In this document: positions 2,105 to 27,479 of the stretch, piece by piece
Numbering within the stretch: position 1 is the stretch's first letter
Layout of the letters: each line of letters begins with the position of its first letter
Source of the DNA: an uncultured Bacilli bacterium
GTDB taxonomy: Bacteria; Bacillota_I; Bacilli_A; RF39; UBA660
Direction: 5' to 3'
NCBI GenBank assembly: GCA_944332435.1
Contig: CALVJW010000002.1
Location: 8,353 to 72,352, forward strand
Length of the DNA stretch: 64,000 nucleotides
The notes under the pieces: model-generated
What the model was told of the DNA's origin: nothing
Database searches by the model: none
The model's input: only the letters and a program-made list of their open reading frames with translations
Position numbers and translations under genes: made by a program

Positions 2105-3838
2105 CTAGTTTGAAGACTCTGTATGATATAATTTTTGATACACATCATTTGTCTTTAATAATTCCTCATGTGTTCCTAGCCCTATTTCCATTCCTTTATG
2201 AATAACATGAATTTCATCCGCATCTATGATTGTAGATAAACGATGAGCAATGATAATAACAGTATGATCTTTTACTAACCCATCAATTGTTTTCTTAATA
2301 TATTCTTGTGATTCATTATCTAAAGCACTAGTTGCTTCATCAAATAAAATGATTTTTGTATTTAAAAGCAATGTTCTAGCAATCGCAATTCTTTGCTTTT
2401 GTCCACCACTAAGATTAATTCCACCTTCACCAATCATGGTTTCATACTGATTTGGTAAACTCATGATATATTCATCGATATAAGCTTTCTTACATACCTC
2501 TCTTACTTCTTCTAATGTAATATCTGGTTTTACTAAACGAAAGTTATCCATTAAGCTCATATTAAATAAATAAGGACTTTGTCGAATAATAGAAATACTA
2601 TTTCTTAAACTATCCTCCGTTAAATCTTGAATGTTTACCCCATCAATTAAGACTTTACCTTCTGTTACATCAAAGTAACGAAGTAATAAATTAAAGATAG
2701 TACTTTTACCGTTTCCACTTCTTCCAACAATTGCAATTTTACGATTTGGTAAGAATTTCATACTAATTCCCTTTAAAACGTCATCTTCCTCTTTGGCATA
2801 ACGAAACTTAACATTGTTAAATTCAATAACTCCTTTGCATTCTTTTAAATCAATTTTACCAAACTGTTCATCTGAATATAAACGATTTGTTAAAATATCA
2901 CACATACGATTTAAAGATACTACTACTTTATTATAGTTAATACCAAACTGTCCAATATTTTCAACAACATAATCAATACGCCATAAATAAGTATTTAATG
3001 TAATGAACATGGCATAAGCAATATTTCCTTGCATAACAAAGTATCCACAGGTAATAAAAATAATTGTCTGCATGATATAATATAATGAATTATTAATAGA
3101 ATAATAATTCGTTTCGAAAATATTACTTTTCTTGGTACGATCATAAATCGTATCAATAGAAGCGAATAATTTTTTCTCAGTTTCCTTTTTAATACCTAAT
3201 GATTTAATTTCTCGAATACCAGTAAGATTCTCTGTTACAGCTTTTACATAATTATCTGATTCTTCTTTAATTTCTTTTTGTATTTTTTTAATTTTAGGGA
3301 ATACTTTATAAGCATAAATTCCCATAATAAATGCGAAAATCAAAACTTCAATTCCTAAAACAATAGATAAAGAGAATGCAAAAACTAAAGCAATGATACC
3401 AGAAATACTTCTTGATACTAAATGAACCAGTTTATCTAATAAAGAAACAATTTGTTCTGGATCATTACAAATTCGATTGATAAACTCCCCTACACCTTTT
3501 TCTTCAAAAGCCCGAGCTGGCAAATCATTAATTTTATGATATAAATCTTTCGTGGCATTACAAATAAATTCATTCTCTAATTGAATAAAAACTCTAGCTT
3601 GAATATTACTAATGATTCCTCCAAACAATACATACATTCCACCATAACTTAAAATCCATAAAAGAAATTGTTCAAAGGTTCCTTTCAGTAATGCTTCTAG
3701 TGCAAAACCCCATATTAATCCTGCACAAATGGATGGGATAATATCTAAAAATACTAAAATAATATAAGTAGTACATAACAATTTTTTATTCTTTAAATAT
3801 TTTTTGATAATTTTAAAATCTTCTAAATTCTTTTTCAT
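2105..3838 (-). CDS. ABC exporter, fused permease and ATP-binding subunit (MsbA/multidrug type)
   Basis: Six-TM N-terminal domain, then Walker A GRSGNGKST, signature LSGGQKQR, Walker B ILFDEATSALD. A start at MKKNLEDF (ATG 3838) is preferred over the longer track ORF because it has a GAGGTG RBS. Confidence 0.85.
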   Translation of the reverse strand: MKKNLEDFKIIKKYLKNKKLLCTTYIILVFLDIIPSICAGLIWGFALEALLKGTFEQFLLWILSYGGMYVLFGGIISNIQARVFIQLENEFICNATKDLYHKINDLPARAFEEKGVGEFINRICNDPEQIVSLLDKLVHLVSRSISGIIALVFAFSLSIVLGIEVLIFAFIMGIYAYKVFPKIKKIQKEIKEESDNYVKAVTENLTGIREIKSLGIKKETEKKLFASIDTIYDRTKKSNIFETNYYSINNSLYYIMQTIIFITCGYFVMQGNIAYAMFITLNTYLWRIDYVVENIGQFGINYNKVVVSLNRMCDILTNRLYSDEQFGKIDLKECKGVIEFNNVKFRYAKEEDDVLKGISMKFLPNRKIAIVGRSGNGKSTIFNLLLRYFDVTEGKVLIDGVNIQDLTEDSLRNSISIIRQSPYLFNMSLMDNFRLVKPDITLEEVREVCKKAYIDEYIMSLPNQYETMIGEGGINLSGGQKQRIAIARTLLLNTKIILFDEATSALDNESQEYIKKTIDGLVKDHTVIIIAHRLSTIIDADEIHVIHKGMEIGLGTHEELLKTNDVYQKLYHTESSN

Positions 3839-4022
3839 TATTTCACACCTCGCAAATACTATAACACTACACCTAAATGGAGAGTCAATAAAAAAGTGTT
3901 TTTCTGATTTTTTCCATGGAAACACCTGCTCTTCATCGATTACAAATTAAATCTATTCTAGCATGACATATATTTGAAGTCAATTTTATTCAACATTTAC
4001 TATTAAAAAAGAAAAACAAATT

Positions 4023-5021
4023 TTAATTGTTTTTCTGAATAAAGTGATACGAATCTCTACACATATCATCTAATGTTTTTTCTGCTTTCCATCCTAACTG
4101 TTGATAAGCATAGGATGGATCTGCATAACAAGCTGCAATATCACCAGCACGTCTTTGGGTAATTTCATATTTCACTTTAACATGATTTACCTCTTCAAAT
4201 TTTTTTACCATCTGAAGAACACTATATCCATTACCAGTTCCTAAATTATATGCATCTACTCCATGAGAGTTAAATACTTTCTTTGCTGCACATAAATGTC
4301 CTTTTGCAAGATCAACAACATGAATGTAATCTCTTACTCCCGTACCATCAATTGTATCATAATCATTTCCAAAAACATTTAAATGATCTAATTCATGAAT
4401 TGCCACTTTGACAATATATGGCATTAAGTTATTAGGGATTCCATTGGGACTTTCACCAATTAAGCCACTTTCATGAGCACCAATTGGATTAAAATATCTT
4501 AAAATAGCAATAGACCATTCTTTATCAGCATGTGCTAAATCTTTTAAAATTTTCTCAATCATCAACTTCGTCTCTCCGTAAGGATTCGTAGTGCTTAGTG
4601 GAAAATCTTCTTTAATTGGTAATGATTTAGGATTTCCATATACGGTTGCACTAGATGAGAAAACCATCTTTTTTACTTTATATTCATTCATCACTTCACA
4701 AAGACAAAGTGTTGAAATTAAGTTATTATCATAATACATTAATGGCTTAGCAACTGATTCACCAACTGCTTTATAGCCAGCAAAATGTATGACTACATCA
4801 ATTTTATGTTTTTGGAAAATAGATTGTAATAATTCTTTATTACGAACATCTCCTTCATAAAAGATAGCTTCTCTTTTTGTAATCTCTTTTATTTTATCTA
4901 CCACTTCACGTTTAGAGTTTGATAAATTATCAATAATAATTACTTCATCACCATTGTTTAAAAGTTCTACAACAGTATGACTACCAATAAATCCTGTTCC
5001 ACCTGTTACTAATAAATTCAT
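4023..5021 (-). CDS. galE: UDP-glucose 4-epimerase
   Basis: NAD-binding motif MNLLVTGGTGFIGSH, the catalytic YxxxK region and a C-terminus typical of GalE. Start at ATG 5021 after an AAGGTG RBS. Confidence 0.85.
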   Translation of the reverse strand: MNLLVTGGTGFIGSHTVVELLNNGDEVIIIDNLSNSKREVVDKIKEITKREAIFYEGDVRNKELLQSIFQKHKIDVVIHFAGYKAVGESVAKPLMYYDNNLISTLCLCEVMNEYKVKKMVFSSSATVYGNPKSLPIKEDFPLSTTNPYGETKLMIEKILKDLAHADKEWSIAILRYFNPIGAHESGLIGESPNGIPNNLMPYIVKVAIHELDHLNVFGNDYDTIDGTGVRDYIHVVDLAKGHLCAAKKVFNSHGVDAYNLGTGNGYSVLQMVKKFEEVNHVKVKYEITQRRAGDIAACYADPSYAYQQLGWKAEKTLDDMCRDSYHFIQKNN

Positions 5022-5135
5022 ATGATTCACCTTCCAATTTTGATTAATAATACCTATCATTATTCCCAACAATTTTCACCAACATTATAACATAAATAAA
5101 TTCTATTACCAACAAGCATAAATTATTTTTCTTTT

Positions 5136-6164
5136 TCATTCAAAAAACTTTTGATAACTAATATTACTTATTTTATTAAATATTTTTTTAAAAAAATGAT
5201 TTGATAAAACAAATGTTAGAAATATAGCTAATAAACTATAGATCAATGGTAAAAAATTACCAAAGAAATTCATTAAACTAAGATGAAATTTAGTATTAAC
5301 AAAAATTAGAATAAATAAATAATGTAATACATATACCTGCATTGTTCTTTCTCCATATTTAGTAAAAAATAGTTTACGCCTCGGAATAAAAGATAACACA
5401 GCAAGTGACATTACAATTTGAATAAAATACATTAACACTCTAGAAAGGGCACCAGCAAAAGGAATTGATTGTGGTAGTTTCGTATATATATATGGATTTT
5501 GTCCTGTTAAAATAGAATTTAATTTACATACTATCCAAGGAAATAATAAAGTAAGCAAAAATACTATAACTAAGATAGCACCAAAAATAATCCTATTTTT
5601 TTTATCATGTAATTTTGAAATAAATTCATCAAGTTGTCTTTCACTAACATAATACCCTATTAAAAAATATGGATAAAATACAATTACTCTGGACAAGCAT
5701 AATACATCCGAAATTTCAGTATCATAACCAGCTAAAATAGAAATAACAAAAAGTACTGGTAATAAATATTTGACTTTTATTCTTTTCAAAATAAAAGTCA
5801 TAGGTAACCATAATGATAATGCTAGTAGATACCATGGTGTATCTCTTTCTGTAACAATTGATACTTCAATATTTTGTTTAAAAACAACATTTAAAATAAA
5901 ATAAATAGCTAATTTAAATAACAAATAAATCAAAATAAAATTCAAAACTTTTTCTAAACGAAAATGATCATCTTTATCTGTTAATTTTTTAGATAAAAAG
6001 CCTGTAATAAAGATAAATAAAGGCATATGAAACATATAGATATAAGTATAGAAACTACTAGCTAAACGTAAATTCAAAATAAAATACTGAAAATGTCCAA
6101 TTACAACAAAGACAATTAAAAGAAATTTTAGATTATCATAAAAAGAAATCCTTTCTTTTAACAT
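5136..6164 (-). CDS. acyltransferase family 3 (OatA-like) membrane protein
   Basis: 342 aa with about 10 TM segments. N-terminal motif F[LY]DNLKFLLIVFVVIGHF is typical of PF01757 O-acyltransferases. Confidence 0.6.
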   Translation of the reverse strand: MLKERISFYDNLKFLLIVFVVIGHFQYFILNLRLASSFYTYIYMFHMPLFIFITGFLSKKLTDKDDHFRLEKVLNFILIYLLFKLAIYFILNVVFKQNIEVSIVTERDTPWYLLALSLWLPMTFILKRIKVKYLLPVLFVISILAGYDTEISDVLCLSRVIVFYPYFLIGYYVSERQLDEFISKLHDKKNRIIFGAILVIVFLLTLLFPWIVCKLNSILTGQNPYIYTKLPQSIPFAGALSRVLMYFIQIVMSLAVLSFIPRRKLFFTKYGERTMQVYVLHYLFILIFVNTKFHLSLMNFFGNFLPLIYSLLAIFLTFVLSNHFFKKIFNKISNISYQKFFE

Positions 6165-6584
6165 TTATCTTGTTTCACTCCTCTGAAAAATAAATAATTT
6201 ACTAAATACATAATTTAATACTACTACAATAAAATTGATAAGAACTTTAGAAATCATTTTATTCATACATAAAACACTAATACATAAATACATTCCAATC
6301 ATATCAACAACATATGAAAATACACGTGCTAGGAAAAAAGAAGATACTTCTTTTACTAACTCTTTTTTATTAGTTGTTTTACTTTCAAATACATATATTT
6401 TATTGGTAACATACGCAAAAATAACAGATAATATCCAAGCGATTGTATTATTAACGTAAGTGTTAATTCCAACTAAGTCCATAAAATAAAATGAGATAAT
6501 ATTAACAAGTGTTGTTAATACACCAAAAATAAGATATAAGATAATTTCTTTATATGTCATAAATATTTTTTCTATTTTTCTCAT
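6165..6584 (-). CDS. GtrA-family membrane protein (flippase-like partner of a polyprenyl-phosphate glycosyltransferase)
   Basis: 139 aa, four TM segments, GtrA-like layout. Directly downstream of a GtrB-like GT2 gene. Confidence 0.6.
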   Translation of the reverse strand: MRKIEKIFMTYKEIILYLIFGVLTTLVNIISFYFMDLVGINTYVNNTIAWILSVIFAYVTNKIYVFESKTTNKKELVKEVSSFFLARVFSYVVDMIGMYLCISVLCMNKMISKVLINFIVVVLNYVFSKLFIFQRSETR

Positions 6585-6626: not shown

Positions 6627-7577
6627 CTATTTTGTTTTTTTTGTTTTTTCTGTTTCCTTCACAATATAAATTGGTCTTTTCTTTGTTTCTAAATAGGTTT
6701 TAGATAAATATTCTCCAATAATTCCAGTACAAAATAGTTGAGTTCCACCTACAAAAAACATAATACATGCCATACTAGGCCAACCAGCTACAGGATCTCC
6801 CCAAACAAGTGTTTTTATAATAATAACAATAATTAAAACAAATGAAATAAAACAGAAAATTACCCCTATTAAAGCTGCTACTACAAGTGGTGTCGTAGAA
6901 AATGCGACAATTCCCTCTAATGCATAAGAGAATAATTTCCAAAAATTCCATTTGGTAGTCCCCGCAACTCTTTCTTCTATTTCAAATTCAATCCATTTTG
7001 TATCAAACCCAACAAAACTAAATAGTCCTTTGGAATAACGATTATACTCTTTCATAGATAAAATAGCAGTCACCATTTGCCGAGTCATCAAACGAAAATC
7101 TCTTGCACCAGATACCATTTCTGTATCTGATATTATCCCAATAATTTTATAAAAACATTTTGTAAATATTTTTCGTAAAAAGGAATAACCTTTACGATTA
7201 GTACTTTTAGTTGCCACACAATCATATTCCCCTGATTCTAAAATAGGCACCATTTCTTTTAAAAGTGCTGGTGGATCTTGCAAATCAGCATCCACCGTCG
7301 TAATATAATCTCCACTAGCATTTTCAAGTCCCGCATAAATAGCAGCTTCTTTTCCAAAATTTCTTGAAAATGAAATATATCTTACTCTTTTATCTTCTTG
7401 ATGTAACGCCCGTAATTGATCTAATGTCTGATCTTTAGAGCCATCATTAATGAATAAAAATTCAAAATCAAAATCATGCATATTTTTTGCTACTTTTGTT
7501 ATTTCTTTATAAAATAAAGGCAGTGAATCCTCTTCGTTATAACAAGGAACAATCACACTGATTTTTGTTTTGGTCAT
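6627..7577 (-). CDS. GT2 polyprenyl-phosphate glycosyltransferase (GtrB / dolichol-P-glucose synthase-like)
   Basis: N-terminal ISVIVPCYNEE...FINDGSKDQT...DADLQD motifs and two C-terminal TM helices, as in GtrB. ATG 7577 (MTKTKISV) is preferred over the GTG at 7604. Confidence 0.75.
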   Translation of the reverse strand: MTKTKISVIVPCYNEEDSLPLFYKEITKVAKNMHDFDFEFLFINDGSKDQTLDQLRALHQEDKRVRYISFSRNFGKEAAIYAGLENASGDYITTVDADLQDPPALLKEMVPILESGEYDCVATKSTNRKGYSFLRKIFTKCFYKIIGIISDTEMVSGARDFRLMTRQMVTAILSMKEYNRYSKGLFSFVGFDTKWIEFEIEERVAGTTKWNFWKLFSYALEGIVAFSTTPLVVAALIGVIFCFISFVLIIVIIIKTLVWGDPVAGWPSMACIMFFVGGTQLFCTGIIGEYLSKTYLETKKRPIYIVKETEKTKKTK

Positions 7578-7684
7578 AATTTCTATAACTTCCTTCCTAA
7601 TCACATATTATTTTCTTTTCCTAACTCATTTTAACATATTTTTACTGTCATGATACACGAAAATTCAAAAATTATTAAATTTTC

Positions 7685-7716
7685 AAGAAAAAAGAGAACT
7701 TACCACGTTCTCTTCC
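7685..7716 (-). terminator. rho-independent terminator downstream of the 7814-9835 gene
   Basis: On the minus strand: GAGAAC-gtggtaa-GTTCTC hairpin followed by TTTTTTCTT. Confidence 0.6.
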
Positions 7717-7813
7717 ACCCTATAAAGTAACTAGCGAGTGTCACCCAAAATAGAATATAAGCAATTAAGTTTAATTTTGCCTTTATAATAAGGATCATTC
7801 TTCATTCGCTTCA

Positions 7814-9835
7814 TTATTTTTGCTTCTTATTGATCTTTTTATCATAAAAATGGTTATGATCAAAGACTACTTTAATTTCTTTATCAGCATCAATTTTATA
7901 ATATTGCTTCATTGTTTTTGCTAAATAACCATCATTATCCCATGGATTCGGATTCCATAAAAAGCGCTCAGATAATACATCAAATTCAACCACATCAACT
8001 TCCTCATTTAACTGTTTTCTGATATGTTCTTCTCTTACCTTGTTTTCTTTATATACTCTTATATAACCATTTATGAAAAAAATAGATACCCCTAATACTA
8101 TAACAAATAATATACTATTTATTACTTTCTCATATTTTACTTTATAAATGGTACTTAAAATTATCAATAAAGAAATCGTTAATAATAACGTTGTTGGCAA
8201 TGCTGTTCTACCACCCCATATTGGTGATAAAAACATTGCTCCATTAGAAAGAATTGCCCCAATAAGTAAAGTAAATGATGCATATTCCTTTTTATATTCT
8301 CGATAATAATAGAATAATAAAATTAACAACATTATAATAATACTAAAATAATAAATCATAATCCATATACTAGAACCATCTACTAAAAATAATAATTTAG
8401 AAATATTAATTCCCAATGTTTCAGCATAATTAACAATTGATGTTACTAATAAAGGGAATAAATAAATACAAGTTACTAGCATCCATGATTTCTTCTTCAC
8501 ATAACGTTTTACCAATAATAAAATTACAATAAATATTAAGATAAGTAAGAAACTATTGCGTAAAAATGTATAAGAAATAAAATTAGGTAAATTAAATACT
8601 ACTTTATCAAAAAGATTCATCGCTTTAAAAGTTGAATATTCTCCTAAGCGATTCATATTACCTGGTGCACAAATTGTAAGAATCATACCGATAAATGAAA
8701 ATATTGTACTCATAAGTAAAGACTTACTAATTTTTTTATCATGAATGGAATGAATAATAGTAAAGATTAAGAATAAAGTAACAATAACTATAGAAACATT
8801 TTCCACAAACATACTAAAAATAAAAGCGAAAATTGGTAATATATAACGTACCCATCTATGAACTTTATCAAATTTTGTACATAAATAAGTGCTTATAATT
8901 ACAAAGCAGGTTGGAAATAAATACGTAATATTCCCTGCTAGCCAAATATATCCTTGACGAAAAGCTTCTTCGTCAACAAGTAAAATTCCTAAAAGTAATA
9001 ATAATGGATACATCATATTTTTTACTTTAATCATTTTTAATCCATAATAATAAATACCTGTCATACATAATGCATTTATCATATTCCAAAGTATCTTATT
9101 ATAAGTTAAAACATTGATAAATATTCTACTAAAGAATCTTCCCTCGTAAGTTTGATAACTATTAATTGCAAAAGAAATGGAATTCCAGATTCCTGAAGAA
9201 CCATTAAAATAGTTACCAAAATCATCACCTGTTAATGGTACCATCATAAAAATGCAATAAAATAATAAGAAAATGATTGTTGTTGATAAAATTGTTTTTG
9301 TCTTATTATCAAATACCTTTTCTCTTTTCTTATTCCAAGATTCACTCCTTTTATGACTATCAGCATCAATATAATTATCGATTAATTGAATCATATTTTT
9401 TTGATTACTTTTATATTGTTTTGGTTTAAATTTTTTTGCTGCTTTTATTGCATCACTGACACTTTTATAGTCATCTAAATTTAAAATATAGCCATCTTTT
9501 GTAAACGAATCAATAATTTGTAATTGATGATCATTCGTATGCTCTTGATATTTTTTTAATCTTGCACATGCTATCACTTTTTTGTTATGGTTCAATCCTG
9601 AAATAATTGACCCTACTCCACCATGTGTTATCAAAATATCCGCTTCTTCAACTAATTTCTCAAATTCATCCATTGGAATCAATTTTTTGATTTCCATATA
9701 CTTACTATCAAAGACAGTATGTCCTGCTTGTACAACTACTCGATCTTTAATTTTTTTCTTTTTTAGTTCTTCTTCAATTTTCTCTAATAATCGTTTAAAA
9801 CTCTTATCTTGGGTTCCTAATGTAACTAAAATCAT
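7814..9835 (-). CDS. Alg13-like glycosyltransferase catalytic domain (GT28 C-terminal / Cps14G-EpsF-like) fused to a large polytopic membrane domain
   Basis: The N-terminal 150 aa (MILVTLGTQ...ITHGGVGSI...) match the Alg13/Cps14G fold. The remaining ~500 aa have at least 12 predicted TM helices. Confidence 0.6.
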   Translation of the reverse strand: MILVTLGTQDKSFKRLLEKIEEELKKKKIKDRVVVQAGHTVFDSKYMEIKKLIPMDEFEKLVEEADILITHGGVGSIISGLNHNKKVIACARLKKYQEHTNDHQLQIIDSFTKDGYILNLDDYKSVSDAIKAAKKFKPKQYKSNQKNMIQLIDNYIDADSHKRSESWNKKREKVFDNKTKTILSTTIIFLLFYCIFMMVPLTGDDFGNYFNGSSGIWNSISFAINSYQTYEGRFFSRIFINVLTYNKILWNMINALCMTGIYYYGLKMIKVKNMMYPLLLLLGILLVDEEAFRQGYIWLAGNITYLFPTCFVIISTYLCTKFDKVHRWVRYILPIFAFIFSMFVENVSIVIVTLFLIFTIIHSIHDKKISKSLLMSTIFSFIGMILTICAPGNMNRLGEYSTFKAMNLFDKVVFNLPNFISYTFLRNSFLLILIFIVILLLVKRYVKKKSWMLVTCIYLFPLLVTSIVNYAETLGINISKLLFLVDGSSIWIMIYYFSIIIMLLILLFYYYREYKKEYASFTLLIGAILSNGAMFLSPIWGGRTALPTTLLLTISLLIILSTIYKVKYEKVINSILFVIVLGVSIFFINGYIRVYKENKVREEHIRKQLNEEVDVVEFDVLSERFLWNPNPWDNDGYLAKTMKQYYKIDADKEIKVVFDHNHFYDKKINKKQK

Positions 9836-9847
9836 GACCCACCTCCA

Positions 9848-11869
9848 TTAATAAATCCATCCACCAAAAATTGCATCAGGATATAACTTGCACATATCTT
9901 CCCACTGCACAATAAAATTATCGGCAATCGGATAAACCAAACGCCCAGCCAATGTACGTGTTGTTCTATTAGCAAAAGTTTCAATAAACACTATTCTACT
10001 ACCAAAAAATTTACCAATATAACACATTGGAACTGCTGTATGTGTTCCTGTTGTAACAATATAATCTGGTTGATAAATTATAAAGTAATAAAAACTTTTT
10101 ATGATGTTTGCACTAAATTTAAACAAATAAGAAAATAAATGATCTTTTGTTCCAAAAATTAAATAATGAACTCGATTGTGATAAGTATTTTTTAAGCCAA
10201 TCGTAGAATCTGTTTTCTCAGTAATTAATTGATAATCATATTTAGAAAACATTGGCTGTAATTGTAATAGTTCTGATAAATGACCACCAGTACTAGAAAT
10301 AAACATTACCTTATCATCTAATTCTTCTTCCGTTTCTTTAATATGTAATAAATTAATCGCCATTACAAATCCCAAAATAAGAAGCGGGAAATTTCTTTCT
10401 AATACATGACCTGAGTAATATCCAATAAATAATCCTAATACAGGTGCCATCGCATACACTGCTGTTTTAATGATAAAATAACTTTTAAAATTCTTTAGTA
10501 CTTTATAAGCAAGATAACCAAGTAAAACAAAATATGGTCCAATAAATAAGATAACTCCAATAATTCCGTATAGATAATATTGATAACTATAATCAGATTC
10601 TGTATAAATAAAATTTAAAGTATTCCCCAAACCAAGATAACGATCTAGTTGGTTATGATTATTTTTATAAATATCTTTTAATACAGATTTCTTTAAAACA
10701 CGATAATCATTATTTGCGTGACTCTTTAAATATTGACACCAAAAACCACTATGATTTAAATCATTATAATTAGTAACTATGTAATCATCAATTCCAAAAT
10801 ATCCAGAATAATCTTTCATAAAATTTTTAATTACTTTATTTTCTTTGTTATTTAAACTAGAACAATTCATCTTATCAATTTCATCAACAACTTTACTTAC
10901 TTTTTCATATTCCATAGGATCTGTAAAACTATCTTTTAAGTTTCCTAACATACTACCAGATTTAGGTACTGTCACTTTTTTTGACATATACCCAATTGGA
11001 GAAAAAGGAAATAAAAAATAAAAAACTAATCCAATTACTAAAATTGGTTTTAAACTCGTTAATTTATATTTTAATAAATAAAAGAATAACCAAATGATAA
11101 TAAACGTTAAAAAAATTAACATCACACCTAGATTAGCTGTTTTTGTTCCCAACATAAACATAGAAAGTGATTGCATTACCAATAATAAATAATCAAATGG
11201 ACTACGCTTTTTATATGCAAGATAAAGGGTAATAGGTAATGTCATAAATAAAATTGCTGACATTTGATTTCCAGATAAAAACCATCCTTTTGTCGTTAAC
11301 TTATAATAACTATAAGCATCTGTGTTTTTAAAACTAAACCAATCAAAGAAAGAATATAAATTGTTAGTTACTGTTTCAGAGTAATTTACATGAGCAACTT
11401 TAAGTAAATTGGTAATAATCATAACAAAACAAACGATAAATAAAAATGTTTGAAGGATACGAACGCAAGTCTTTTGTTTTATTCCACTATAATAAACGTT
11501 AAAAATTAACATAAGTGGCAAAATAAATAATTTTCCAAGATAATATGTTTCAATAATTAAACTTGGTTTTTGTTTTGAATATGCATCTAAATTAAATAAA
11601 GTTGTATTATAGTAATGTAAAATAAAATAAATACCAAGTAATATAATATATGGAATATATTTGATGAATTTTTTCTTATCATCGTATAAATAAATAGTTA
11701 AAATAGTAGAAAAGCCAATTAAAATAACATTAATCATTTCAAACAATGAAAAGCCAAATACTTGAACATCTCTTACAATACAAGCTTGAATTATATTGAT
11801 AAATGGCTGAACTAAAATTAATAATACAATTAAGTATTTGTTTATTTCTCGTAGTTTTTCTTTTGTCAT
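9848..11869 (-). CDS. large polytopic membrane domain (Wzy/O-antigen-ligase-like?) fused to a C-terminal Alg14-like domain (Cps14F/EpsE-like)
   Basis: About 500 aa of TM helices, then a C-terminal segment MFISSTGGHLSEL...IVTTGTHTAVP...FIETFAN characteristic of Alg14/PssD. Confidence 0.6.
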   Translation of the reverse strand: MTKEKLREINKYLIVLLILVQPFINIIQACIVRDVQVFGFSLFEMINVILIGFSTILTIYLYDDKKKFIKYIPYIILLGIYFILHYYNTTLFNLDAYSKQKPSLIIETYYLGKLFILPLMLIFNVYYSGIKQKTCVRILQTFLFIVCFVMIITNLLKVAHVNYSETVTNNLYSFFDWFSFKNTDAYSYYKLTTKGWFLSGNQMSAILFMTLPITLYLAYKKRSPFDYLLLVMQSLSMFMLGTKTANLGVMLIFLTFIIIWLFFYLLKYKLTSLKPILVIGLVFYFLFPFSPIGYMSKKVTVPKSGSMLGNLKDSFTDPMEYEKVSKVVDEIDKMNCSSLNNKENKVIKNFMKDYSGYFGIDDYIVTNYNDLNHSGFWCQYLKSHANNDYRVLKKSVLKDIYKNNHNQLDRYLGLGNTLNFIYTESDYSYQYYLYGIIGVILFIGPYFVLLGYLAYKVLKNFKSYFIIKTAVYAMAPVLGLFIGYYSGHVLERNFPLLILGFVMAINLLHIKETEEELDDKVMFISSTGGHLSELLQLQPMFSKYDYQLITEKTDSTIGLKNTYHNRVHYLIFGTKDHLFSYLFKFSANIIKSFYYFIIYQPDYIVTTGTHTAVPMCYIGKFFGSRIVFIETFANRTTRTLAGRLVYPIADNFIVQWEDMCKLYPDAIFGGWIY

Positions 11870-11879
11870 AATTCACCTC

Positions 11880-12839
11880 TTACCTCTTATGAGATTTAAA
11901 ATAATATATATTAGCTATAAAAGAATTAAACATAATTAAATAAATTCCTTTAATACTTTTATAGAAATATTTATTTTTTCGATAATGTGGAAATTTTTCC
12001 TTAACATTCTTTCTTGCTTCGTTCACCGCTTTTTGAAACATTTCTTTATCATATTTTGTTGCTGTTTTAATAAACGTTGCATAGAGATATCTCACATAAC
12101 AATATTCTAATATAGACTGATATTCAAAATATAAATCTTTTTTCTTATAATCTTCAATAATTCCATTCCAATTTTCAATATAATTAAAAATTCTGTCATC
12201 TTTAGTGTTTGTAATACTACCACTTCTTTGAACATATTGATAATATGGTTCTTTTATTACTCCAATAGAATGAATATTCGGTAATAATCGATATAAAAAT
12301 TCCACATCTTCAAACCATACCTTTTTCTTAAATTCAATATTTTCAAACAATGATTTTTTGTAAATTTTATTCCATGCTGAAGGATAAATTGTAAGCATAT
12401 TTTCTTTTACTTCTTGCTTTGTAAATAAATCATGTTCAATATTAGAATATCCCCTTTTTAATTTATCTGAATATACTTCATTAAAATCACATACAACAAG
12501 ATCAAATCCTTCTTTTATTTTATTTAGCATTGAGTCATACATTTCTGGTAAAACAAAATCATCACTGTCGACAAAAGCAATATAATCCCCTTTTGCTTTT
12601 TTGATTCCATAATTACGTGCATCACTAAGTCCACCATTTTCTTTTGTAAAACTTTTTATAAAAGAATATTTTTTACTAAATTTATCAATAATTTTTTGAC
12701 TATTATCTGGGCTCCCATCATTAATTACCAATATTTCTATTTTTTTTGGATCAATCGTTTGATTTGCCAAACTAGTTAAACATTTTTCTAAATATTTTTC
12801 AACATTATAAACAGGAACGATAATACTTAATTCCGGCAT
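11880..12839 (-). CDS. GT2 family glycosyltransferase
   Basis: LSIIVPVYNVEKYL...INDGSPDNS...DSDD motifs. Confidence 0.8.
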   Translation of the reverse strand: MPELSIIVPVYNVEKYLEKCLTSLANQTIDPKKIEILVINDGSPDNSQKIIDKFSKKYSFIKSFTKENGGLSDARNYGIKKAKGDYIAFVDSDDFVLPEMYDSMLNKIKEGFDLVVCDFNEVYSDKLKRGYSNIEHDLFTKQEVKENMLTIYPSAWNKIYKKSLFENIEFKKKVWFEDVEFLYRLLPNIHSIGVIKEPYYQYVQRSGSITNTKDDRIFNYIENWNGIIEDYKKKDLYFEYQSILEYCYVRYLYATFIKTATKYDKEMFQKAVNEARKNVKEKFPHYRKNKYFYKSIKGIYLIMFNSFIANIYYFKSHKR

Positions 12840-13798
12840 TATTTACCACCTATCTTTTTCATTAATTTTAACATCATTCTAAAATCATAATAAGCACAAA
12901 AACATACTAACTTAAACTTCTTACTCTTTTTTTTGTAATATTCATTCTTCCTATAGTTTGGATACATTGCATGAAATATTTTTTTGATTTGGTTTCCCTT
13001 TTCTTTTCCCTCTGAATAATTTAAATATCGTAAAGATGCACTATAAAGTAAATGTTCAATATATAAATATTCCAATTCTTTTTGATATTTTTTTCCACTA
13101 CGATAAGTAAATTCTTCTGTTAAACTCTCCAAAACAACAAAAATATCATCTAATTTTGGGTTATATTTTACTTGTTTCATCGTAGAATTTTCATGAATCA
13201 CATAATAGTAATATGCATGTTCTAAATAAGCAATTTTAGATGCATAAATTGCTAGCAATGGAATTGTTGCTAAATCTTCATAGTAAACACCCTCCTTAAA
13301 AAAGAGATTATTTTTAGTAAACAATTCTTTTTTAAATAATCGACCTACTGGTCCAGGGTGTGATAACATAAACGAAATATTACTATTTTTTGAAAAATTA
13401 TGATACTGTTTAAAATATTCAGTATAGTTATCGTATACTTTCCATAAATCACTGATTACAATATCATAATCATCCTCTTCCAATTTATTTGCTAAATCAA
13501 TAAGAAAATCACTTGCAATATAATCATCACTATCGACAAATGTAAGATAAGATCCTTTAGCATTCTTTATACCCAGATTACGAGCATGTCCTTGTCCATG
13601 ATTGGTATCATCAATCACAATTAAATTATCATATTTTTTCTGATAATCTCTTAATATTTCTAAACTATGATCTTTAGAACCATCATTAATAGCAATCACT
13701 TCATAGTTTAAATAATTTTGATTAAAAAGGCTATCCAAACATTTTTTTAAATACGGTTCAGCATTATAAACTGGAACAATAATACTAATTTTTTTCAT
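12839..13798 (-). CDS. GT2 family glycosyltransferase
   Basis: ISIIVPVYNAEPYL...INDGSKDHS...DSDD motifs. A start at MKKISI is probable. Confidence 0.8.
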   Translation of the reverse strand: MKKISIIVPVYNAEPYLKKCLDSLFNQNYLNYEVIAINDGSKDHSLEILRDYQKKYDNLIVIDDTNHGQGHARNLGIKNAKGSYLTFVDSDDYIASDFLIDLANKLEEDDYDIVISDLWKVYDNYTEYFKQYHNFSKNSNISFMLSHPGPVGRLFKKELFTKNNLFFKEGVYYEDLATIPLLAIYASKIAYLEHAYYYYVIHENSTMKQVKYNPKLDDIFVVLESLTEEFTYRSGKKYQKELEYLYIEHLLYSASLRYLNYSEGKEKGNQIKKIFHAMYPNYRKNEYYKKKSKKFKLVCFCAYYDFRMMLKLMKKIGGK

Positions 13799-14960
13799 AA
13801 TCATCACCATCAATTTGCTCAAATAATTTATGCCAATCTTTTATAATTTCATCTATATGAAACTGTTTTGAAAATTTCTTTACATTACAAGAAAGTTCTT
13901 CTAATTTATTAGAGTCACTCATGATTTTTTCTAAAATAGAAATATATTTTTCTTTTGTATTCTCACTTACAATCATTCCTGTTTTATTATCTTTTATTTC
14001 TTCATAAACAGCTTCTCCAAAAGGAAATGTAATTGTTGGTACTCCACATTCATTCGCTTCTAATATGCTAAGAGAAAAGCCTTCATATTTTGAAGTATTT
14101 AAATGCAGAGACGATGTCAACAAAACATCCTTGGGATGATTGGTAAGGCCCATGTAATGCATTCTTTCAGGGTATTTCATCTGCTTTTTCATCTTTTCTA
14201 ATTCCTGATTATCCCCATTTCCATATACTTCAAATGTCCAATCTTTAAATTTTTCTTTTCCAAAAACTTCACTTACAATTTCAGCCATGAAAGGAATTCT
14301 TTTTTCTTCAGAAATACGAGCAATTGTCACTAATTTTTTATTTTCTACAACATCTGCTTTTTCTTTTACAGTAAAACGAACTGGATTATATATATAGGTA
14401 CTGTTTTGAAATCCATATTCTTTTGCTTCTTTCATAATTGCTTTACTTAACCATAAAAACTTAAATTGATTTCTATATTTCATCAAAGTTGTAATAGTAG
14501 GCTTATGATTTTTAGTAACAGTAAAAGAGCAATGTTGATGAAAAATTGTTCGTGAGTAAAATTCTTTTGGTATACCTTTAATAATTTGATAATGTGATAC
14601 TAAAATATAATCCGGATTTAACGCTCTTAACTCTCGTTTCAGTGCATGATAATCACGGTTTAACACGATTTTTTCATGAACCACTTTTTTTAATAGAAAA
14701 CAAGTTTTTAATAAATTTCCTTTCATAAGTGTATCTTTTACATCTTGTTTTCTTGTAAACTCCCATAACTCATTTGGATTTACAGCATGAACATGTAATC
14801 TTGGATCATATTCATCAACAAGTGGTCCTGGATTATCGCGCATAGAAATAACACGTACATCCATTCCTTCTTCTAATAATTTCATGGCAATTTGTTTATT
14901 CACTTGCCATATTCCGCCAAAAGAATTCCCTTTTAGTTGTATTATCACCAATCGTTTCAT
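13785..14960 (-). CDS. GT4 (group 1) glycosyltransferase
   Basis: C-terminal EGFSLSILEANECGVPTI...GMIV motif of the GT-B GT4 family. Confidence 0.75.
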   Translation of the reverse strand: MKRLVIIQLKGNSFGGIWQVNKQIAMKLLEEGMDVRVISMRDNPGPLVDEYDPRLHVHAVNPNELWEFTRKQDVKDTLMKGNLLKTCFLLKKVVHEKIVLNRDYHALKRELRALNPDYILVSHYQIIKGIPKEFYSRTIFHQHCSFTVTKNHKPTITTLMKYRNQFKFLWLSKAIMKEAKEYGFQNSTYIYNPVRFTVKEKADVVENKKLVTIARISEEKRIPFMAEIVSEVFGKEKFKDWTFEVYGNGDNQELEKMKKQMKYPERMHYMGLTNHPKDVLLTSSLHLNTSKYEGFSLSILEANECGVPTITFPFGEAVYEEIKDNKTGMIVSENTKEKYISILEKIMSDSNKLEELSCNVKKFSKQFHIDEIIKDWHKLFEQIDGDDYEKN

Positions 14961-14966
14961 AAAATC

Positions 14967-15773
14967 CTACTTTCTATATAAATCATAGTGGTGATGTGTT
15001 ACTTGCTTTTCCTTAGGTGGCAATTTCATATAATCACCATATAATCCAGTTAAATATTCGTCATAACCCTTTTGACAAGGAAATTTTTCATCTTCAAAAG
15101 GTAAATAAATGGTTCCTTTATAAGAATCAGTTGAAACGATTTCAGGCAATCCATATCCATGAACAACACATCCACCCAGTTTACTATCCTCATATTCATA
15201 CTTTGTAGCTAATTTTTCAATGTGTTGAATTAAATACTTATATCCTTTTTTCTGTGACCATTGAAACCACCATTTTTTTAAAAATTTAAAATATCGCATA
15301 TTGGTGTGGAATTCTGGAACTTGATACATACTAAGCGATTTACGATAAAACATAATTTTACTAAAATGCAATTTCCCAATGAATTTATTACTTGGAAAAC
15401 CATCTATTGGAAAAATATCAATATAAACACCCATTGAATATGGCTTAACATTATGCTCTATTAAAACAGTAGTTGTATCTACAATCTTCATAAATGGATA
15501 ATAATAACCTTCTGTGATGTCATATGATAATAATTGAATTCCTTTTTTCTCATGATTTTTCATATATTCTTTTAATTTTTCATAATCTCTTCTTTTCATA
15601 ATAAGATCAATATCATCATCCCATGGAATAAATCCTTGATGGCGAACTGCTCCAAGTAATGTTCCACCAGCTAAATAATACTGTACGTTTGCTTCTTTAC
15701 AAATTTTATCAATTTTTTTTAACAATTCTAATTCAATTTGTTTCATTTCCTCTAGAGAAATTTTTTGTTTCAT
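14967..15773 (-). CDS. LicD-family phosphotransferase (phosphocholine / ribitol-phosphate transferase family)
   Basis: GGTLLGAVRHQGFIPWDDDIDL motif. Confidence 0.8.
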   Translation of the reverse strand: MKQKISLEEMKQIELELLKKIDKICKEANVQYYLAGGTLLGAVRHQGFIPWDDDIDLIMKRRDYEKLKEYMKNHEKKGIQLLSYDITEGYYYPFMKIVDTTTVLIEHNVKPYSMGVYIDIFPIDGFPSNKFIGKLHFSKIMFYRKSLSMYQVPEFHTNMRYFKFLKKWWFQWSQKKGYKYLIQHIEKLATKYEYEDSKLGGCVVHGYGLPEIVSTDSYKGTIYLPFEDEKFPCQKGYDEYLTGLYGDYMKLPPKEKQVTHHHYDLYRK

Positions 15774-15776
15774 AAT

Positions 15777-17273
15777 TTACCTCCTAATTAGACCTTTCTT
15801 AACACGATTCATAAACGTAGTTTCACCTAATACATAATAAATTCCATAAATAATGGCCGTATTGATTGCGAAATATCCACCATATACTAAAAACCACATA
15901 AAAATATTCGTTATAGTTGTAAATGAAACTAAAAAATATCCAATTACTAAATCAACTATATAAATTAAAATAAATCTCATATTACCAATAAAATATGGCC
16001 ATGGAGAACGTTCAAAAATATTACGGTAAACAATAATTGTTTTCATAATATATTCTGAAATAAAGACAGACATCACAGTTGCTATTAATACACCAGGAAT
16101 TCCAATAAAATGAACTAACAATAAAGATAAAGTTAAATTGGTAATCGTATCAACTAGTGCACATATTTTCGTTTCTTTAAATAATCCTCTTGCAGTCACA
16201 AATGTCGTAGTTGCCGTTTTTACAATGAACAGACATAAAATCCCAACAAAAGAAAGTGCAATCCAATGATTAGTAGAAATATTTCCTTCATACCAAATAT
16301 CAATAAAAGAATCGATTGCTAAAGTAAGCGGAACACAAATAACTGTCATAAGTAAAAATAGCATTGAATTCAATTCTTTAAAAACTTGATAAGCTTCCTT
16401 GCTTCCCTTTGCGAGTAAATTACCGATAATTGCTAGCATAGAACTAGAGATTTTTCCTAAAATAGTTTTTAGCATATTAATAATATAATTATAGGTAGAA
16501 TAAATAGATACTGAAATTAATCCTAAAAATTTAGAAATGATTAATACGTCAATATTAGAGCCAATTAATCCATTAATCTTATGAAAAATCAAATGTTTTA
16601 CTTGAGAAGTAAATACATAACTTTTCTCTTTTCCACGATATTTATAATCAGGATATAATTTCTTACAAGCAATTACAATTACAATATTTGATAACAATTT
16701 GATAACACTATGCATAAATAAAATAATAAAGAAATCTACTCTACATAGCAATAAAATAATTTCTAAAATAGTTTGAACAATTTGCCCAATTTGCAATGCC
16801 AAATTGCAAATATATTTTTTCTCTTTTACTTCTAATAAACACTGATATGGTACAAAAAAGTATGTAACAACATTACTAAGTGAAAATAACATAAAAGTCA
16901 TAATAATATAAAAATAAGAAAATGTTGTCTCTTTTATAAAAAATGGTACAATAAATGATACTAAGAACGCAATTGCAAATACCGCAATTCCTATTAAAGA
17001 GAAAATCCTTAAAGCTCCAGCTAAAATATGATTCATTTCTTCTTCATCGTGATCTGTATTTGGTTTATATAATGCATATAAAACAGCACTACTTAGTCCA
17101 CCATCAACCAAAGCAACATAAACCATAATTTGGGTAAATAATTGATATAAACCTAATGTTTCATTTCCTAATATTTGAATAAATAATTTTAATTTAAATA
17201 TTCCTAGCACAGAAATAATTATTAATGGAATTACATCAGTTAGTAAATTCCACATAATCTTTTTTATTTTCAT
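15777..17273 (-). CDS. polysaccharide flippase (Wzx / MOP superfamily)
   Basis: 498 aa, about 12-14 TM segments, architecture typical of Wzx/PST exporters. Confidence 0.6.
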   Translation of the reverse strand: MKIKKIMWNLLTDVIPLIIISVLGIFKLKLFIQILGNETLGLYQLFTQIMVYVALVDGGLSSAVLYALYKPNTDHDEEEMNHILAGALRIFSLIGIAVFAIAFLVSFIVPFFIKETTFSYFYIIMTFMLFSLSNVVTYFFVPYQCLLEVKEKKYICNLALQIGQIVQTILEIILLLCRVDFFIILFMHSVIKLLSNIVIVIACKKLYPDYKYRGKEKSYVFTSQVKHLIFHKINGLIGSNIDVLIISKFLGLISVSIYSTYNYIINMLKTILGKISSSMLAIIGNLLAKGSKEAYQVFKELNSMLFLLMTVICVPLTLAIDSFIDIWYEGNISTNHWIALSFVGILCLFIVKTATTTFVTARGLFKETKICALVDTITNLTLSLLLVHFIGIPGVLIATVMSVFISEYIMKTIIVYRNIFERSPWPYFIGNMRFILIYIVDLVIGYFLVSFTTITNIFMWFLVYGGYFAINTAIIYGIYYVLGETTFMNRVKKGLIRR

Positions 17274-17282
17274 AACACCATC

Positions 17283-18116
17283 CTATCTATTTTTTTGAGT
17301 ATCGAATACAATTTCCAATGTCTGATGATTGATACGATCTTCTTCCTTAGGTAGTTTCATATAATCACCATATAACTGTTTTAAATACTTATCGTAATTA
17401 TTTGGACACTTATAAAGCTTATCAGCAAATTTCATCTCTACAAGTGGAAAAAAATCACTTCTTAAATGATTATCATCTGGATAAATTGCTCTTGTAGCAA
17501 ACGTATTAATATAACTACTATTATCATCATGATTAAGACTCATTAAATATTTTTTCAAAGAATGTAATCTTTTATAAGATAAAAAATGAAAACAATATAC
17601 TAAATATTTATGATGGCATTTATTTAATGTATAAATTTTTTTCTTATATAAAAGTGCTTCTGCTATAATTTTAAGAAGACTAGCTCTTACTCTTTCACTT
17701 TTTGATTCTTTTGCATGCATATTATCAAATGGAAAAATATCAACAAAAATTCCCCTATGTATCACATCAATTCCATCTAATGTTTTTTCTAAAAATAAGG
17801 TATTATTTTTTCTGACTTTAGAAAATGGTAACCAATATTTAGAATCAGTAGTATCTGTATGAAGAAAATATTTTTCACCTAACTCTTTTGGTGCTACTTC
17901 TAAAAATTTATTATAGTCTTTCCTAAGCATTCCAATATCTAAATCATCATCCCATGGAATAAAACCTTGGTGACGAACAGCACCAAGCAAAGTTCCACCT
18001 ATCAAAAAATAATTCAGTCCGTATTTATCACAAATACGAATAATTTCATCTAAAATTTCTATTTGAACTGTTTGTAATTTCTTTAACGTTTTATTATCAA
18101 TTTCTGTATACATCAT
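17283..18116 (-). CDS. LicD-family phosphotransferase, paralog 2
   Basis: GGTLLGAVRHQGFIPWDDDLDI motif. Confidence 0.8.
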   Translation of the reverse strand: MMYTEIDNKTLKKLQTVQIEILDEIIRICDKYGLNYFLIGGTLLGAVRHQGFIPWDDDLDIGMLRKDYNKFLEVAPKELGEKYFLHTDTTDSKYWLPFSKVRKNNTLFLEKTLDGIDVIHRGIFVDIFPFDNMHAKESKSERVRASLLKIIAEALLYKKKIYTLNKCHHKYLVYCFHFLSYKRLHSLKKYLMSLNHDDNSSYINTFATRAIYPDDNHLRSDFFPLVEMKFADKLYKCPNNYDKYLKQLYGDYMKLPKEEDRINHQTLEIVFDTQKNR

Positions 18117-20373: not shown

Positions 20374-21082
20374 GGTTAACACCAGTTTCTAAAATTGCAT
20401 TAGCAACTTTCAAATTATATAAAGTTGTAATTTTAATATTATAATCTTTTCCATTTACAAGAGCCACTTTCTCACCTTTTGTTGTAAAAATTTTGCAACC
20501 ATCAGTTAAAGTTTGCTTTTCTTTTTCCGTTAAAGATTCAAATAATTTGATTAACTTCTGAATATTAAATGCTTGTGGATTTTGTCCGTAATACATTTCT
20601 TTTCTTATTGGTATCTCCGTAATGAATTTTCCATCTTTTGATTGTACGATTGTTTCTACTGCTGGATAAACGGTATCTGTTGCCCCATATTTCAAACATA
20701 ATTCAATATTATCTGTAATCATTTTTTGAGTTAAAAATGGTGTTACAGCATCATGTGATACAATAATATCATCTTTTTTTAATCCATATTTTTCTTTAAT
20801 ATGATAACAACCATTCATAAGGGAATCTGCTCTTGTTTCTCCACCTTCAACAATATCAATATTTTCAGTATTTGGAAGATATTTAGAAATTAAATCTTCG
20901 GCATAATGAAGCCATTCAGGATTTATACAAATAACAATTTTGTCAATTTCAGGATGTACATAAAATTGTTCTAATGTATGAATTAAAATAGGTTTATCAC
21001 CTAACATTAAAAATTGTTTTGGTCGCTCCGTATTTCCCATTCTACTTCCGGAACCACCAGCTAATATAACTGCATATTTCAT
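20366..21082 (-). CDS. tarI: ribitol-5-phosphate cytidylyltransferase (IspD/TarI family)
   Basis: MKYAVILAGGSGSRMG...KQF N-terminal nucleotidyltransferase motif. Lies next to the TarJ-like gene. GAGGTGG RBS before ATG 21082. Confidence 0.7.
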   Translation of the reverse strand: MKYAVILAGGSGSRMGNTERPKQFLMLGDKPILIHTLEQFYVHPEIDKIVICINPEWLHYAEDLISKYLPNTENIDIVEGGETRADSLMNGCYHIKEKYGLKKDDIIVSHDAVTPFLTQKMITDNIELCLKYGATDTVYPAVETIVQSKDGKFITEIPIRKEMYYGQNPQAFNIQKLIKLFESLTEKEKQTLTDGCKIFTTKGEKVALVNGKDYNIKITTLYNLKVANAILETGVNHD

Positions 21083-21129
21083 TTTTCCACCTCTCATTGT
21101 CTAACTATTATTATACACGAAATTATATG

Positions 21130-27477: not shown

Positions 27478-27479
27478 TT

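Follow-up and report, generated by a model that had tools for sequence, protein, structure and literature searches.

The window analyzed here, 64,000 nucleotides (nt) of contig CALVJW010000002.1 from an uncultured Bacilli bacterium, contains two adjacent genes, geneA and geneB, in each of which one half of a split Alg14/Alg13-type glycosyltransferase (GT) is joined to a polytopic membrane module (Table 1). In geneA a Wzy-like module precedes an Alg14-like half, and in geneB an Alg13-like half precedes a GtrC-like module. The best explanation, which we consider fairly probable, is that the two are proteins of a Wzx/Wzy operon in which an anchored split GT-B enzyme ties a Wzy-like polymerase to a GtrC-like enzyme. 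A search of the accessible literature found no paper on Alg14/Alg13 halves fused to Wzy-like or GtrC-like proteins, and Wzy::Alg14 (a double colon denotes a fusion) is an established architecture that to our knowledge has not been described.

Both open reading frames (ORFs) were confirmed at the coordinates, length of 673 residues and 12-nt separation reported in an earlier note on this sequence, and each begins with ATG. The spacer, TGGAGGTGGGTC, contains a GGAGG ribosome-binding site 5 nt ahead of the geneB start codon, and the short spacer together with this site indicates tight translational coupling of the two genes. Base composition is uniform across the window at about 27% GC, and reading frames of 673 codons in such DNA are not due to chance. 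The exact sequences of both proteins recur on at least five independently assembled contigs of up to 130 kb, which derive from different samples and sources in the NCBI, ENA and Logan assemblies. A diverged relative, locus L006, keeps both fusions side by side between the same flanking genes and in the same housekeeping neighborhood (MiaB-like and RsmE), with full-length identities of 63% for geneA and 57% for geneB and all motifs retained. AlphaFold2 models built on family alignments had a mean pLDDT of 87 for geneA and 89 for geneB and were confident across the junctions, the sole disordered stretch in either model being residues 157-175 of geneB, and catalytic motifs are conserved across all four modules. 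These observations led us to reject the idea that the genes are assembly chimeras or frameshift-restored pseudogenes of four genes; nothing was found in its favor, and we regard it as extremely improbable. The earlier note had raised such an origin for the membrane regions, and the recurring contigs and the diverged ortholog rule it out. The fusions are real and intact, and we demonstrate below their domain identities, topology, recurrence and synteny.

The family PF13425 ('O-antigen ligase like membrane protein') covers residues 11-511 of geneA (E 1.1e-31; 110.7 bits against a gathering score of 31), and close relatives of this module also match Wzy_C, weakly. Hydropathy and the positive-inside rule predict 12 transmembrane (TM) helices with the N- and C-termini both inside, every predicted cytoplasmic loop being rich in Lys/Arg. 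A 128-residue loop (residues 299-426) faces outward and bears R390, E424 and D426, all invariant in family alignment A2, while the nearly invariant H488 lies in the last outer loop; this layout of loops and helices is typical of Wzy/WaaL-type proteins. The topology places the Alg14-like domain in the cytoplasm, some ten residues from the membrane, where an acidic linker of about ten residues (KETEEELDDK) joins it to TM12. Residues 522-672 match the PssD/Cps14F profile NF041549 from end to end (positions 1-151 of 151; 164.7 bits, cut-off 110) and this C-terminal half also matches the Alg14 family PF08660 (E 7e-14; 52.6 bits against 27), with a G-loop, STGGH, at residues 526-530. In Foldseek searches the soluble half matched the MurG N-domain and CapG, and by homology it is the equivalent of the N-domain of a MurG-like GT-B enzyme. 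Stand-alone relatives of the membrane module extend only about ten residues beyond their final TM helix, to what would be residue ~519 of geneA, and position 1 of the PssD profile falls at residue 522, which implies that geneA is a clean end-to-start join of two complete genes.

Residues 2-156 of geneB match the whole PssE/Cps14G profile NF041548 (positions 1-146 of 146; 129.1 bits, cut-off 120), and the same half matches Glyco_tran_28_C (PF04101; E 5e-10; 40 bits against 22). It carries the nucleotide-sugar motifs THGGVGS (residues 70-76) and NDHQLQ (residues 101-106), it matched GT-B C-domains in Foldseek searches, and to judge from these features it is the nucleotide-sugar-binding C-domain of a GT-B enzyme. 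On the profile of the single-chain glucuronosyltransferase WelK (319 positions) the soluble halves align side by side, to positions 4-149 and 169-318, indicating that the pair makes up one complete MurG-like GT-B enzyme. The earlier note had placed an Alg14-like domain at the C-terminus of the upstream gene and an Alg13-like domain at the N-terminus of the downstream one, and the full-length matches above cut-off put both domains inside these families, not outside them.

A disordered, basic cytoplasmic linker (DSHKRSESWNKKREKVFDNKTK) separates the Alg13-like half from the membrane module of geneB, which matches PF19528 from residue 177 on (E 3e-41; 142 bits against 27) and includes a small C-terminal beta-containing domain at residues ~611-660. 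PF19528 (DUF6056) is called GT_STM0557_N in newer Pfam releases; in Salmonella, STM0557-0559 form the gtr operon (GtrC family III) by which the galactose of the O-antigen is glucosylated (PMC3688519). In geneB the cytoplasmic Alg13-like domain, the basic linker and TM1 are followed on the outer side by a DD motif, D204 and D205, invariant in 34/34 aligned family members (alignment A1). Extracellular loops with a conserved DxD-like motif are a hallmark of the GT-C enzymes of multi-component glycosylation systems (PMC8035078); D204-D205 is a candidate for the catalytic acidic motif of such an enzyme, and the GtrC-like module probably belongs to GT-C.

The profile matches to PF13425 and PF19528 bear out the earlier proposal that each half is attached to a polytopic module of about 500 residues, Wzy/ligase-like or GtrC-like: there is one of each. 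Profile-profile comparison of the two modules showed different, unrelated families, and homology between them was rejected, the hhalign match (54% probability) being out of register and attributable to hydrophobic-composition noise. An hhalign comparison of the DUF6056 profile with a PTPS_related protein of locus L004 gave a weak match (31% probability). Foldseek searches of the Protein Data Bank (PDB) with geneA and geneB matched the soluble GT-B halves and nothing for the membrane modules, and PDB sequence-profile searches with the membrane modules returned nothing meaningful. The only strong match in BFVD was V5UQY6, an uncharacterized 445-residue protein of the temperate Oenococcus phage phiS13, which has the same fold as residues ~176-620 of geneB (Foldseek E 1.5e-10; TM-score 0.72 on the target; 19% identity) and might serve this phage of a Gram-positive host as a glycosyltransferase in lysogenic conversion. 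No match to the DUF6056 module came up when 50,697 phage genomes were searched by tblastn.

The fusions are variants of a recurring cassette. The order Wzx, GT4, GT2, GT2, Wzy-like, Alg14, Alg13, GtrC, GtrB, GtrA is found repeatedly in gut-metagenome Firmicutes with varying fusion breakpoints, and the best matches to the window proteins come from metagenome-assembled genomes of Erysipelotrichaceae and Lachnospiraceae. The window itself belongs to a low-GC spore-former. In Dielma fastidiosa and Traorella, to judge by ORF sizes and order, Alg14 (~157 residues) and Alg13 are unfused. Loci L001, L007 and L008 have Wzy::Alg14 and a free Alg13, and L004 has a free Alg14 with Alg13::GtrC and also Wzy::GT4. 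In L002 a direct Wzy::GtrC fusion (P0040, 1144 residues) accompanies GtrA::Alg14 and a free Alg13, a different wiring of the same six modules; its genes run from P0040 (Wzy-like::DUF6056, 10001-13435) through a GtrB-like GT2 to GtrA::Alg14 (294 residues, 14534-15418) and the free Alg13 (15430-15909). The trio of GtrC, GtrB and GtrA is also present in L004 and L002. Further fusions are Wzy::LicD (several proteins), Alg13::GtrA (P0360), Alg13::polysaccharide deacetylase (several proteins) and GT4::Alg14, GT2::Alg14 and Big_2-containing::Alg14 (several proteins), and VanZ proteins are also among the partners of the Alg14- and Alg13-like halves.

How common these states are differs between the two junctions. 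An exhaustive HMMER search of 1.84 billion representatives returned 2,226 relatives of geneA, and the top 150 of these include at least 15 clusters (50% identity) verified as Wzy-like::Alg14 fusions. The Alg13::GtrC fusion formed about 8 clusters at 90% identity in one search; a junction-only query aimed at it yielded a flood of stand-alone PssE proteins and none of the fused ones. The double fusion was seen in two lineages only, the window and L006, and the PssD/PssE families are dominated by stand-alone forms. A single-peptide-pattern scan of GTDB species representatives found no full-length fused homolog among those reached, nor did it pick up the genome from which the window comes. The earlier description of the architecture as very unusual was therefore overstated for geneA, the Wzy-like::Alg14 form being recurrent, and holds for Alg13::GtrC and for the double fusion, which are rare; both fusions were found elsewhere, in L006. 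On a neighbor-joining tree of the Wzy-like module, calculated without support values, the fused state is scattered and needs at least five changes, and the nearest neighbors of the geneA module, its ortholog aside, either lack a fusion or are fused to LicD. The relatives closest to this module share 45-50% identity with it and are LicD fusions or stand-alone proteins of ~530 residues. Similarly, the GtrC module of geneB is 42-47% identical to unfused DUF6056 proteins versus 33-37% to most Alg13::GtrC fusions. By these comparisons, fusion and fission within the cassette are recurrent.

Several related proteins and loci deserve mention in their own right. Directly after its Alg13::DUF6056 gene, L006 has an extra stand-alone DUF6056 gene (14033-15496, 487 residues), which suggests two distinct GtrC-like activities. 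The Wzy::Alg14 loci that have no DUF6056 gene (L001 12635-17528, L007 6999-11912 and L008 14103-19030) share a conserved gene set after Alg13, made up of a GT2 (~240 residues), DUF2304, a small EamA-like protein, a ~590-residue protein with no Pfam match and DUF6020; the set appears to form an alternative multi-component system for glycosylation outside the cytoplasm. P0160 (786 residues) and P0249 (845 residues) have Big_2 Ig-like repeats, then a few TM helices and a C-terminal Alg14-like domain, an odd architecture in which an adhesin-like region outside the cell accompanies half of a cytoplasmic glycosyltransferase. In P0360 (303 residues, 48 member sequences) a PssE/Alg13-like domain is fused to a GtrA-type membrane domain, and P0304, P0326, P0344 and P0367 (~280 residues) combine a PssE-like domain with an uncharacterized C-terminal extension of ~120 residues. 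These short PssE forms appear far commoner than Alg13::GtrC.

Table 1 Fusion genes, their modules and the surrounding polysaccharide locus (positions in the 64,000-nt window)
Feature	Position	Strand	Basis
geneA	9848-11869	minus	ORF, 673 aa, ATG start
Wzy-type / O-antigen-ligase-like polytopic module, geneA residues 1-518	10316..11869	minus	PF13425
Alg14-like / PssD / Cps14F half, geneA residues 522-673	9851..10306	minus	NF041549, PF08660
Intergenic spacer geneA/geneB, 12 nt	9836..9847	minus	direct sequence reading
geneB	7814-9835	minus	ORF, 673 aa, ATG start
Alg13-like / PssE / Cps14G half, geneB residues 1-156	9368..9835	minus	NF041548, Glyco_tran_28_C
Disordered Lys/Arg-rich cytoplasmic linker, geneB residues 157-175	9311..9367	minus	pLDDT <50
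DUF6056 / GT_STM0557_N (GtrC-type) polytopic module, geneB residues 176-673	7817..9310	minus	PF19528
Asp204-Asp205 of geneB (TGDDFG), first outer loop right after TM1	9221..9226	minus	alignment A1
TarI ribitol-5-P cytidylyltransferase	20366-21097	minus	NF001183, 336 bits vs cut-off 166
TarJ-like dehydrogenase	19357-20382	minus	Pfam
Acyltransferase_3	18243-19391	minus	Pfam
Best promoter-like site, just upstream of first LicD	18161-18134	minus	11/12 match with TG
LicD phosphotransferase	17283-18116	minus	Pfam
Wzx-type (MOP/Polysacc_synt) repeat-unit flippase, 498 aa, separate from fusion genes	15777-17273	minus	homology and synteny
LicD phosphotransferase	14967-15773	minus	Pfam
GT4, cytoplasmic glycosyltransferase	13785-14960	minus	Pfam
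GT2, cytoplasmic glycosyltransferase	12839-13822	minus	Pfam
GT2, cytoplasmic glycosyltransferase directly upstream of geneA	11880-12839	minus	Pfam
Hairpin and U-run, candidate intrinsic terminator ~95 nt past geneB stop	7685..7721	minus	RNA fold
GtrB-like GT2 polyprenyl-phosphate glycosyltransferase, C-terminal TM hairpin	6627-7604	minus	Glycos_transf_2
GtrA-family small membrane protein, putative Und-P-sugar flippase	6165-6584	minus	PF04138, E 2e-22
Second acyltransferase_3, downstream of GtrA	5136-6164	minus	Pfam
GalE UDP-glucose 4-epimerase	4023-5072	minus	TIGR01179, 452.6 bits vs cut-off 262
Fused MsbA/PglK-like ABC exporter, downstream edge of polysaccharide locus	2105-3925	minus	domain match

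All genes between about 21.1 kb and 2.1 kb lie on the minus strand (Table 1). By gene content the locus reads as an ordinary Wzx/Wzy-dependent pathway combined with a three-component side-chain glycosylation system, and its product is probably a ribitol-phosphate-containing wall polysaccharide. The MsbA/PglK-like ABC exporter at the downstream edge might be part of this pathway, for example as a flippase for lipid-linked glycan. The Wzx gene has no Pfam match of its own and is 58% identical over its full length to an L002 gene carrying PF01943 (Polysacc_synt); a Wzx occupies the same syntenic position in L001, L002, L006 and L008. The order GT4-GT2-GT2 is kept in L001, L002, L006, L007 and L008 according to Pfam, and in L018 according to ORF sizes and order only. 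The GtrB-like protein aligns over its full length with PgfS (303 bits) and with ArnC, and it likely supplies a sugar linked to undecaprenyl phosphate (Und-P) to the GtrC-like module. The suggestion in the earlier note that the fusions might combine glycosyl transfer with export is not borne out, as a separate Wzx flippase gene and a GtrA flippase gene are present. The same note had remarked that neither a separate Wzy nor a primer occurs in the locus. None was found: a scan of the 64-kb window that covered all ORFs of at least 250 residues and most of those of 150-250 residues (all but five, of 171-229 residues) detected no stand-alone Wzy. The polymerase itself is not missing, however, and would be the N-terminal module of geneA. 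In related loci the head gene is PF00953 (WecA/TagO/Alg7-type). The primer of this genome is probably encoded elsewhere, by analogy with Rhizobium, where the primer PssA lies outside the cluster holding pssD and pssE (PMC9961541).

A hairpin followed by a U-run, spotted by eye past the geneB stop codon, is a candidate for closing a transcription unit that runs from LicD to geneB. Folding of the 66-nt stretch 7685-7750 gave -18.7 kcal/mol (z -2.24), and a consensus terminator scan did not list the hairpin.

Outside the polysaccharide locus, the window carries a full-length OLE (Ornate Large Extremophilic) RNA (RF01071; 24678-25269, minus strand; 435.6 bits; model positions 1-616 of 616). Directly downstream of it lies a 201-residue ORF (24071-24676, minus) with no Pfam match, a candidate OLE-associated protein (OapA). 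Ribosomal protein S2 (50170-51207, minus; 345 residues) has a C-terminal extension that matches Rho_N at residues 313-344 (E 9e-9). Two tandem paralogs of 319 residues (32131-33090 and 33103-34062, minus) belong to the 'putative amidoligase enzyme' family (Amidoligase_2). Two overlapping tandem genes with RNB domains (25390-27495 and 27480-29204, minus) comprise one full RNase R-like protein (OB, CSD2, RNB, S1) and a second of 574 residues with a weaker RNB match only. A bacteriocin-type C39-peptidase ABC exporter gene (53838-55898, minus) adjoins about 2.6 kb (51207-53838) in which there is no ORF of at least 150 residues and which could harbor small precursor-peptide genes.

We propose that an operon for a cell-wall polysaccharide of the Wzx/Wzy type ends with geneA and geneB, and that the C-terminal Alg14-like domain of the first and the N-terminal Alg13-like domain of the second, both of them cytoplasmic, would associate to form one MurG-like GT-B glycosyltransferase. 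We infer this heterodimerization by analogy with pssD and pssE, which encode 'halves of one GT' (PMC9961541), and with Alg13/14 and EpsE/F, which are MurG halves (PMC4973528). By analogy with Cps14F/G, PssD/E, WelK and Alg13/14, the enzyme would add the second sugar to a lipid-diphosphate-linked primer. At the outer face, the Wzy-like module of geneA may polymerize the flipped repeat units, and the GtrC-like module of geneB may decorate the polymer with a branch sugar taken from an Und-P-sugar that the GtrB-like enzyme would make and GtrA would flip, roles suggested by related systems, among them the three-component glycosylation systems that have been reviewed (PMC8035078). The fusions would have arisen through loss of the stop codon and intergenic region between neighboring genes of the cassette, and their primary effect would be to anchor the halves in the membrane and to fix their supply at 1:1. 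Dimerization of the halves would in addition bring the polymerase and the GtrC-like enzyme into one four-module complex, and we infer functional coupling of these two membrane modules. Should activity of the halves require dimerization, this architecture would of necessity keep the polymerase and the GtrC-like enzyme together.

A stronger form of this proposal is an obligate heterodimeric four-module 'glycan assembly machine', in which the GT-B enzyme at the inner face physically links a Wzy-type polymerase with a GtrC-type GT-C enzyme; we hold it to be possible but doubtful. If it were true, the first committed cytoplasmic step, polymerization and extracytoplasmic branching would be coupled in space and stoichiometry, allowing for example local recycling of undecaprenyl phosphate or branching concurrent with polymerization, and in P0040, by direct fusion of Wzy to GtrC, evolution would have arrived at this coupling a second time. 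Independent of the window genes, this direct fusion suggests that proximity of Wzy and GtrC is useful and not accidental. Several observations weigh against the proposed operon and the coupling of its enzymes. The sequence of the PF13425 module does not separate a polymerase from a ligase. The scan of the 64-kb window, at the scope given above, found no priming phosphotransferase (PF00953 or other) to account for the acceptor of the Alg13/14-like enzyme. The terminator-like hairpin stands between geneB and gtrB/gtrA, and the two units may consequently be regulated separately. Finally, the range of partners (GT4, GT2, LicD, deacetylase and Big_2) may point to mere adjacency of genes and not to selected coupling.

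That last point is the core of a neutral account, in which the fusions are by-products of tight gene adjacency through stop-codon loss, with tethering at most as their effect, and there is neither cooperation between the Wzy-like and GtrC-like modules nor a function for the four-module complex. The number of unrelated neighbors to which the halves are joined (GT4, GT2, LicD-bearing Wzy, deacetylase, GtrA, VanZ and Big_2), the five or more changes of fusion state on the Wzy-like tree and the unfused cassettes of cultured relatives such as Dielma all favor it. We nevertheless consider it rather unlikely: the partners, with few exceptions, are either membrane proteins or enzymes that act in the same pathway, suggesting selection for anchoring, the double fusion has been kept across 57-63% identity with every motif intact, and the independent Wzy::GtrC fusion points to a real relationship between these two modules. 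The many alternative partners do imply that anchoring to any neighboring pathway protein may be the main driver of fusion. The missing primer and the adjacent polyprenyl-phosphate GT2 would be accommodated by a pathway like that for the lactococcal polysaccharide pellicle (PSP), in which the GtrB-like GT2 primes on undecaprenyl monophosphate with no need of PF00953, the Alg13/14-like enzyme extends the Und-P-sugar, and DUF6056, instead of decorating side chains, either polymerizes the oligo- or polysaccharide or moves it, once finished, from Und-P onto the final acceptor. GT-C enzymes have been proposed in lactococci to polymerize PSP and to ligate it to rhamnan on an Und-P carrier (PMC10821137), and the second, stand-alone DUF6056 gene of L006 leaves room for two GT-C roles. 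Under such a scheme both ends of one pathway would lie within one protein. However, loci with the same cassette begin with PF00953, the classical partner of Alg13/14-type enzymes, and a primer gene outside the cluster has a precedent in pssA (PMC9961541). GtrA would moreover be redundant if Wzx flipped the sole lipid-linked intermediate, and the GtrC after which PF19528 is named adds just one glucose; on balance this pathway appears unlikely.

The ambiguity of the PF13425 module allows one further reading, that it is a WaaL-like ligase moving the finished glycan to an acceptor, with polymerization carried out by something else or absent. The name of the Pfam family is in keeping with this, and Wzy and WaaL share a clan and are inseparable by sequence here. 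Yet the locus contains a Wzx without any alternative candidate for Wzy, the module sits at the syntenic position where all related loci have their one Wzy-like gene, and attachment in Gram-positive bacteria is normally carried out by LCP enzymes, which together make a ligase quite improbable.

Each part of the proposed assembly has counterparts in known systems. As in Cps14F/Cps14G of S. pneumoniae, EpsE/EpsF and PssD/PssE of Rhizobium, the Alg14-like half comes before the Alg13-like half, in the same orientation and within a repeat-unit locus, and as in PssD/PssE both halves match end to end above equivalog cut-offs and keep the GGH, HxGxG and N-x-HQ motifs. The proteins of those three systems, however, are free-standing and ~150-160 residues long, whereas each half in the window is joined to a complete 500-residue polytopic enzyme, of a different family in each case. 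The window halves reconstitute the same enzyme as single-chain Alg14-Alg13 proteins of the WelK/SpsK type, and both fused and split states of the Alg14/Alg13 family are known, the fused state occurring in some protists (PMC4973528). Unlike the halves in WelK/SpsK-type proteins and protist fusions, those of the window sit on two polypeptides, each joined on its outward side to a membrane enzyme and not to the other half.

The membrane module of geneA resembles Wzy/O-antigen-ligase-like proteins (PF13425, Wzy_C clan) in its 12 TM helices, in its large outer loop with Arg/Glu/Asp/His and in being the only such gene in a locus with a Wzx; it departs from Wzy-type proteins in bearing a cytoplasmic C-terminal Alg14-like domain. 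With its PF19528 module, DD motif and adjacent gtrB-like and gtrA genes, geneB resembles the GtrA/GtrB/GtrC systems (STM0557; CsbB/GtcA/YfhO, Csd and Pgf), and as in pgf a GalE gene lies near the gtr genes. Unlike in those three-component systems, its GtrC-like module has an N-terminal cytoplasmic Alg13-like domain and is transcribed with genes for backbone GTs and a polymerase, a terminator-like hairpin intervening before gtrB/gtrA. In yeast, Alg14 is anchored by a single TM helix. The eukaryotic Alg7-Alg13-Alg14 complex is similar in that one half anchors the catalytic half (PMC4973528), and in related loci a PF00953 gene is followed by the Alg14/13-like halves. In contrast to that complex, the anchor in the window is a whole polymerase, the catalytic half has an anchor of its own and the window has no PF00953 gene.

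All the modules come from known families, and the locus follows a conventional logic. The novelty lies in an architecture in which the halves of a split GT-B enzyme are attached, one each, to two different membrane enzymes of the outer face, and in the pattern of shifting fusions. For annotation, the two 673-residue proteins are bifunctional and single-domain names are inappropriate for them, and a 'missing Wzy' in loci of this kind can hide inside a gene annotated as a glycosyltransferase. The shifting fusions (Wzy::Alg14, Alg13::GtrC, Wzy::GtrC, GtrA::Alg14, Alg13::GtrA and Wzy::LicD) constitute Rosetta-stone-type evidence on which components interact. Both the organization of Wzx/Wzy enzymes in the membrane and the timing of three-component branching relative to polymerization are still largely inferred, and this natural protein pair would offer a ready handle for asking whether transfer, polymerization and branching share one complex.

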